Shown: positions 657 through 1,772 of the stretch, one piece after another | Layout: each line of letters opens with the position of its first letter | How positions within the stretch are numbered: position 1 is the first letter of the stretch | Source: a virus | Taxonomy: Duplodnaviria > Heunggongvirae > Uroviricota > Caudoviricetes | Direction: 5' to 3' (one strand) | Virus record (IMG/VR): IMGVR_UViG_2667528065_000006 | DNA: 7,620 bases | Position numbers and translations under genes: made by a program | Notes under the pieces: generated by a model | What the model was told of the DNA's origin: nothing | Seen by the model: only the letters and a program-made list of their open reading frames with translations | The model's database searches: none

Positions 657-1772
657 ATGAAAAAATTAACAGTGGCAATTTCTGCTGTAGCTGCATCAGT
701 ACTGATGGCGATGTCTGCTCAGGCAGCAGAAATTTACAATAAAGACAGTAACAAGCTGGATCTATACGGGAAAGTTAATGCCAAGCACTACTTTTCCTCT
801 AATGATGCAGATGATGGTGATACTACTTATGCCCGTCTTGGCTTCAAAGGTGAAACCCAAATCAACGATCAACTGACTGGTTTCGGTCAGTGGGAATATG
901 AATTCAAAGGCAACCGTGCTGAATCTCAAGGTTCTTCCAAAGACAAAACCCGTCTTGCATTTGCAGGCCTGAAATTTGGTGATTACGGCTCAATCGATTA
1001 CGGCCGTAACTACGGTGTAGCATACGACATCGGTGCGTGGACTGACGTCCTGCCAGAATTCGGTGGTGATACCTGGACCCAAACAGATGTGTTCATGACT
1101 GGTCGCACCACAGGTGTTGCAACCTATCGTAACAACGACTTCTTTGGTCTGGTCGATGGCCTGAACTTTGCTGCTCAGTATCAGGGTAAAAATGACCGCA
1201 CTGACGTAACTGAAGCCAACGGTGATGGTTTCGGTTTCTCCACTACTTATGAGTATGAAGGATTCGGCGTGGGTGCAACCTATGCTAAATCAGATCGCAC
1301 TGACGGTCAGGTCGCCTATGGTAAGAGCAAATTCAATGCCTCCGGCAAAAATGCGGAAGTATGGGCTGCAGGCCTGAAATATGATGCGAACAATATCTAT
1401 CTGGCTACCACATATTCTGAAACTCAGAATATGACCGTTTTTGGTAATAACCATATTGCAAACAAAGCACAAAACTTTGAAGCAGTAGCACAATATCAGT
1501 TTGACTTCGGTCTGCGACCATCTGTTGCTTACCTTCAGTCAAAAGGTAAAGACCTTGGTGTTCATGGTGACCGAGACTTAGTCAAGTATGTCGATGTCGG
1601 TGCTACTTACTACTTTAATAAAAACATGTCCACTTTTGTTGATTACAAAATCAACTTAATTGACGATAGTAAGTTTACCAAAACAGCTGGTATTGATACC
1701 GACGACATCGTCGCTGTAGGTCGGGTTGATACCGACGACATCGTCGCTGTAGGTCTGGTTTATCAGTTCTAA
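657..1772 (+). CDS. nmpC: OmpC/OmpF-family general porin, prophage-encoded (NmpC/OmpD-like), 371 aa
   Basis: Signal peptide [23 protein letters not shown] followed by AEIYNKD; porin hallmarks through to the C-terminal ...VGLVYQF beta-signal. SD AAGGG lies 6 nt upstream. Its position between Q and the holin on the opposite strand matches the DLP12 nmpC arrangement. The ORF is uninterrupted (no IS insertion). Confidence 0.92.
1693..1758 (+). repeat. In-frame 33-bp tandem duplication inside the porin C-terminal beta-strand
   Basis: ttgataccgacgacatcgtcgctgtaggtcggg (1693-1725) and ttgataccgacgacatcgtcgctgtaggtctgg (1726-1758) differ at one base. The protein reads ...[27 protein letters not shown]. 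Confidence 0.9.

Follow-up and report, generated by a model that had tools for sequence, protein, structure and literature searches.

Near the 3′ end of a prophage-borne porin gene of E. coli, a 33-bp stretch of DNA is present twice in direct succession and without interruption of the reading frame. The question raised by this locus is whether the additional copy arose in a bacterium and changes the outer-membrane barrel that the gene encodes, or whether it entered the sequence by a technical route. The window, i.e., the whole stretch of 7,620 bp analysed here, is one complete contig (AOQI01000203.1) of the draft E. coli assembly GCA_000397365.1.

With respect to the identity of the gene, the 371-aa product matches the Pfam family Porin_1 (PF00267) with an E-value of 6.4e-149 (score 496 bits; cut-off 23.7). 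Its matches among solved structures are OmpC, OmpK36, PhoE and OmpF (E 1e-134 to 1e-108), OmpC 2xe2 among them with E 3.8e-134, and the nearest database relatives of the product carry the names porin OmpC, OmpD, NmpC and Lc. Pfam, PDB and the relatives thus agree with the first-pass annotation, which had assigned the product to the NmpC/OmpD type within the OmpC/OmpF family of porins. Sequence identity of the window porin amounts to 88-89% with proteins called NmpC or Lc and to 77-80% with OmpD. In the alignment of the mature porin with 44 homologues the segment LPEFGGDTW, containing the PEFGG motif of loop L3, is invariant, and at the C-terminus, VGLVYQF, the residues G343, Y346, Q347 and F348 are invariant across all 45 sequences. 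An ending of the form ..G-x-x-Y-x-F with a terminal aromatic residue is what we take to be the C-terminal barrel-assembly signal of general porins.

The genes of the window are arranged in the order essD (18-233, minus strand), porin (plus strand), quuD (1961-2344, minus strand), rusA, ybcO, ninE, ybcN and ybcK, with ylcG being annotated between quuD and rusA in relatives and an alpha/beta hydrolase gene lying between ybcN and ybcK. The porin gene is encoded on the strand opposite to that of the flanking holin gene essD and antiterminator gene quuD, and annotated genomes show the identical order. The window spans the stretch from Q to the lysis genes in a cryptic lambdoid prophage resembling DLP12, and given this DLP12-type layout the porin gene is therefore nmpC, which corresponds in E. 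coli to ompD of Salmonella; site and orientation, between the Q antiterminator and the lysis genes, are shared with nmpC of the DLP12 type. In K-12, nmpC is silent owing to an insertion element, and the gene has been reported to be quiescent in laboratory E. coli (PMC3333887).

Table 1. Coordinates of the porin gene, of the parts of its 33-bp repeat and of the other private lesions in the 7,620-bp window
Feature	Position	Strand	Remarks
nmpC/ompD-type porin gene, DLP12-like prophage	657..1772	+	371 codons plus stop; from the list of open reading frames
Signal peptide codons of the porin gene	657-725	+	
Copy 1 of the 33-bp unit	1693..1725	+	Odd base G at 1723 (CGG, Arg356); starts after 2 bases of codon 346
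Copy 2 of the 33-bp unit	1726..1758	+	CTG, Leu367; equals the single copy of all related genomes; forms the last beta-strand in the AlphaFold2 model
Unaltered gene end	1759..1772	+	Last 2 bases of codon 368 (V), YQF, stop; terminal aromatic residue kept
Exact 25-bp tandem duplication, TTGGAGTCAGTGAATAACTCAGGTA twice, then TTGG	311..360		essD-nmpC spacer; private
Rearranged nmpC upstream region	474..585		Private; matched as a whole by no complete genome
+1 insertion and two adjacent substitutions, GATAT to GGACAG	2507..2512		Private; where relatives annotate ylcG
+1 insertion and adjacent substitution in rusA	2622..2626		Private
8-bp insertion AGAGGGAC in rusA	2767..2774		Private; frameshift after codon 55

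The 33-bp repeat and its distribution

Tandem Repeats Finder reports a 33-bp unit in 2.1 copies at 1693-1760 (97% matches, 0 indels, score 129), and a second repeat search as well as direct comparison give the same two copies, so that the coordinates, the number of 11 additional residues and the difference of one base given in the first-pass annotation are all correct. A match of 32 out of 33 positions at zero distance within 7.6 kb is far beyond chance. The sole mismatch between the copies sets G at 1723 against T at 1756 (Arg versus Leu), the upstream copy being the changed one, and is located only 2-4 bases away from the copy junction, which reads GGTCGGGTTGATACC at 1719-1733. The period is continued by two more bases, TT (1759-1760), resulting in a microhomology of 2 nt for which the chance expectation is about 1 in 16.

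The repeat lies in frame in the 371-aa open reading frame, to which it adds 11 residues and which stays open; with the repeat in frame and the ending unaltered, the description as an in-frame insertion ahead of ...VGLVYQF was borne out. Without residues 347-357, the porin is exactly the 360-aa protein WP_000737271.1 of E. coli UPEC132, and the removal of any of 10 equivalent 11-residue frames, including the one chosen in the earlier annotation, restores this protein too. In comparison with the NmpC/Lc/OmpD porins (DLP12 = qsr′, phage PA-2; Salmonella OmpD), the gene product minus 11 residues hence equals a common E. coli protein, whereas the 11-residue repeat before the last strand and the rearranged region upstream of the gene set the window apart from these homologues.

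The porin gene region matches 3,157 of the 5,426 complete E. coli genomes, and the best matches all comprise 1,268 bases as compared to 1,301 bases of the query, i.e., they are without the 33 bp. While an unduplicated 53-mer, used as a positive control, is matched by 836 of the 5,426 genomes, the 53-mer across the copy junction is matched by none. Likewise, GTDB species genomes, IMG/VR contigs and JGI metagenome contigs contain no match to the junction pattern, in which either G or T was allowed at the variable position, and amongst about 15 billion proteins the exact 371-aa porin is found on one contig only, the window's own. That orthologs lack the segment, as implied by its description as an insertion, agrees with the alignment, where none of the 44 homologues has residues in the 11 inserted columns. 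No insert at the same position was seen among the best-scoring relatives inspected; the top relative, a protein of 407 aa, bears another duplication elsewhere in the gene. A literature search on nmpC duplications returned nothing relevant.

Position of the additional residues in the barrel

AlphaFold2 was run on the alignment of the mature porin with its 44 homologues and yielded a model of moderate confidence (mean pLDDT 67.7, pTM 0.68). The barrel has 16 main strands and, in addition, a short piece at the N-terminus; its loop at residues 96-126 contains a helix. In this model, strand 15 is formed by mature residues 301-310 and the last strand by residues 339-347 (IVAVGLVYQ), which derive from copy 2, and the two are connected by a loop extending from residue 311 to 338. 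Copy 1 (mature residues 324-334) is placed in this loop, where residues 324-336 constitute a low-confidence segment (pLDDT <50), and it has to be borne in mind for this placement that the alignment itself favours copy 2 as the last strand.

In porins of the OmpF/OmpC fold both termini are periplasmic, which makes the loop connecting strands 15 and 16 the extracellular loop L8. According to the model the duplication, if translated, would lengthen L8 from 17 to 28 residues and leave ...VGLVYQF intact. This is at variance with the longer or doubled C-terminal strand proposed in the first-pass annotation, given that AlphaFold2 puts copy 1 in loop L8 and copy 2 in the strand. Its other suggestion, a variant extracellular or periplasmic feature, comes closer than an assembly-disturbing strand, with the extracellular loop L8 being favoured by the model.

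It is already known that loops of OmpC-family porins vary by in-frame insertion and duplication and that L8 tolerates inserts. OmpF carrying inserts of 13-17 residues in loop 8 is still surface-exposed (PMC6458713), and these inserts resemble the one described here in affecting the same loop and in being of comparable size. They differ from it, however, in that they are foreign epitopes placed on purpose, whereas the additional residues in the window are a copy of the adjacent strand sequence. In OmpK36, the duplication of a surface-loop segment arose under phage selection, and loops 4, 6 and 8 were found to matter for adsorption (PMC12421954). This loop 4 duplication, too, is short, lies in frame and alters a loop of an OmpC-family porin with the barrel being kept, but the loop 3 insertions and the loop 4 duplication of OmpK36 are recurrent or experimentally selected, whereas the variant in the window is located in L8, is confined to a single record and has no selective context.

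Private lesions and the origin of the repeat

The repeat is present in the record, is unique to this record and lies amid a cluster of equally private lesions. Of note, all 46 differences between the window and the nearest complete genome, UPEC132, fall within 311-2774, and the remaining 4.8 kb (2775-7620), containing ybcO, ninE, ybcN, the hydrolase gene and ybcK, are base-for-base identical. The 25-bp repeat at 311, a lesion of the same type as the 33-bp repeat, has a 4-nt microhomology (TTGG). In the rearranged region upstream of nmpC, a second duplication with a period of 25 bp (474-496 and 499-521) is linked with a net deletion of about 190 bases of reference sequence, and some 26 nt are imperfectly duplicated (533-558 versus 559-585); this region also contains the one sigma-70-like site that was found (553-580). 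Two private duplications accordingly share a 25-bp period, and the three periods overall are 25, 25 and 33. By the insertions of 8 and 1 bp rusA is split into two fragments, of which the 57-aa RusA fragment occurs on the window's contig only, and the lesion at 2507-2512 may be expected to affect the reading frame of ylcG, which is probably inactivated. Both +1 insertions are accompanied by one or two substitutions no more than 5 bases off. For the unaltered products of the intact neighbouring genes, QuuD, YbcO, YbcN, the hydrolase, YbcK and EssD, the number of contigs ranges from 184 to at least 1,000. In contrast to these, the indel lesions are absent from all complete E. coli genomes searched, and those at 2507-2512, 2622-2626 and 2767-2774 have no exact match in 2.9 million viral contigs. 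A local direct or inverted donor for the complex small lesions, as in quasi-palindrome correction, was not found.

The six substitutions in the porin gene (728, 737, 1109, 1112, 1124 and 1220) are all synonymous third-position changes from T to C or from T to A. No complete genome has all six together, and of the four located in 1085-1235 two are shared with other E. coli nmpC alleles; the patch at 1109-1124 is also present in a divergent allele (L005). This suggests that the porin substitutions are mosaic, by gene conversion or by a chimeric consensus, and part of the variation in this stretch is accordingly real sequence rather than noise. Known alleles combined in a simple mosaic account for the SNPs but not for the indels, which are without exact matches.

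With about eight private indel or duplication events in 2.5 kb beside 4.8 kb without a difference, independent natural mutation is not a reasonable explanation and the lesions share one cause, and from this circumstantial evidence we infer that the cluster is most likely of technical origin. The 33-bp repeat itself probably has no in vivo origin and would be a local assembly or consensus artefact, one of several local sequence-construction errors confined to 311-2774, the others being further tandem duplications of short units, a deletion, insertions of 1 or 8 bp and patches of mosaic SNPs. Candidate causes are the joining of overlapping contig or read ends that were left unmerged, or an error-rich or chimeric stretch bridging the prophage region in an old draft assembly. 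An artefact is supported by the singleton status of the repeat, the clustering of the lesions, the shared 25-bp period and the position of the mismatch near the junction, the latter being expected because an erroneous sequence end would have blocked the merging of the overlap. The first-pass annotation had taken the one-base difference between the copies to exclude an artefact, which does not follow from a mismatch 2-4 bases from the junction on a contig that bears other private duplications and frameshifts.

Further support comes from a precedent, the contig JARCCX010111000.1 (L004; GCA_029782595.1) of an unrelated assembly, in which the same porin allele occurs and which harbours, within 3.6 kb, a pair of exact tandem duplications of 141 bp. 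The first lies in the porin gene (1566-1848, resulting in a 407-aa product) and the second in quuD (3042-3324), and a stray porin fragment is located upstream. These duplications look like an assembler artefact. What this contig and the window have in common is the occurrence of several private duplications of equal period on one short contig; unlike there, the periods in the window are 25, 25 and 33 bp, and one copy pair is mismatched. Against an artefact count the unequal periods, the in-frame position of the repeat, the open gene and the exclusively synonymous substitutions in the porin. Blunt joining of k-mer-overlapping contigs, considered as the specific mechanism, fits poorly with the microhomologies and with the unequal periods. 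Microhomologies of 4 nt and 2 nt fit better with polymerase slippage, which is also possible in vitro.

Distinctly less probable than an artefact, yet a possibility to be taken seriously, is a real private slipped-strand (microhomology-mediated) duplication in the quiescent porin gene, followed or accompanied by the T-to-G change and giving rise to a longer L8. Copy 2 would then be strand 16 with the assembly signal and copy 1 an 11-residue extracellular extension of L8, which the exchange of Leu for Arg would make unfit as a membrane strand, and folding and trimer formation would be retained, the porin differing in a surface epitope or in a loop contacted by phages. The lesions nearby would in turn reflect the decay of a cryptic prophage or be the scars of one error-prone repair event. 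The in-frame repeat in an intact open reading frame, the 2-nt and 4-nt microhomologies at the repeat borders and the AlphaFold2 placement of copy 2 in the last strand and of copy 1 in the loop are in line with such an event, as are the 13-17-residue inserts in OmpF loop 8 that reach the surface (PMC6458713), the phage-selected surface-loop duplication of OmpK36 with its evidence that loops 4, 6 and 8 matter for adsorption (PMC12421954), and the synonymous-only SNPs, which point to a genuine gene history under purifying selection. However, the duplication has no second occurrence in the 836 genomes that share this gene end or in about 15 billion proteins, and some eight independent private indels in 2.5 kb, beside 4.8 kb of identical sequence, are very unlikely to have arisen by ordinary mutation. 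Moreover, the model is only of moderate confidence (pLDDT 67.7) and its alignment likewise favours copy 2 in the strand, and since nmpC is reported to be quiescent in laboratory strains (PMC3333887) and its upstream region is rearranged here, selection on the surface loop is doubtful.

It is rather unlikely that the whole 2.5-kb cluster is the scar of one real event of error-prone, microhomology-mediated template-switching repair between lambdoid prophages. Such a scar would consist of a deletion and four tandem duplications of short units, together with insertions that shift the frame and mosaic patches of synonymous SNPs, and the porin would have been kept in frame with a larger L8, the Leu-to-Arg exchange disarming the surplus strand-like segment. 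Still more improbable is a real duplication that doubles part of the last transmembrane strand and thereby disturbs BAM recognition, folding or trimerisation, amounting to a loss-of-function allele. The repeat does hold most residues of the last strand (IVAVG), so that two competing segments could mis-register, and with rusA inactivated and ylcG probably so a decaying locus is plausible. But the terminal ...VGLVYQF is unaltered and still found at the very C-terminus, AlphaFold2 keeps 16 strands with the extra segment in L8, and loop 8 of OmpF tolerates longer inserts (PMC6458713). In addition, the Leu at position -4, counted from the end of the signal, is replaced by Arg in copy 1; by the usual alternation in barrel strands this Leu would face the lipid or an interface, and the exchange would disfavour competition between the two segments.

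If the repeat is an artefact, as preferred here, it calls for caution only, in that neither the 371-aa porin nor the broken rusA should be counted as natural alleles in surveys of porin diversity or pseudogenes. If it is real, it adds a further private loop variant, kept in frame, of a prophage porin that is usually silent. This would be of modest interest with regard to the amount of additional sequence that L8 tolerates and to how competition between a duplicated strand segment and the true terminal signal is avoided; template switching, if true, would constitute a natural mutation shower yielding a new porin surface variant. Neither the artefact nor the real outcome bears on an open question.

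Further features of the prophage segment

The 3′ untranslated region of the porin gene (1773-1935) contains a long imperfect hairpin directly after the stop codon (at about 1790-1823) and, further downstream, a terminator-like hairpin with a T-run at 1911-1935. In DLP12, the regulatory RNA ipeX is located in a comparable stretch downstream of nmpC; when the window, including this untranslated region, was scanned against Rfam, no match reached the gathering score.

Between ybcN and ybcK, the alpha/beta hydrolase (esterase-like) gene (4328-5335, plus strand) constitutes a cargo gene whose exact 330-aa product is found on 184 contigs and is unchanged in many E. coli genomes. Finally, the ybcK serine recombinase gene (5685-7211) is bracketed by a 52-nt direct repeat (5351-5402 and 7424-7475, 77% identical), the two copies of which could be paired regulatory or recombination sites, or a chance similarity of AT-rich sequence.
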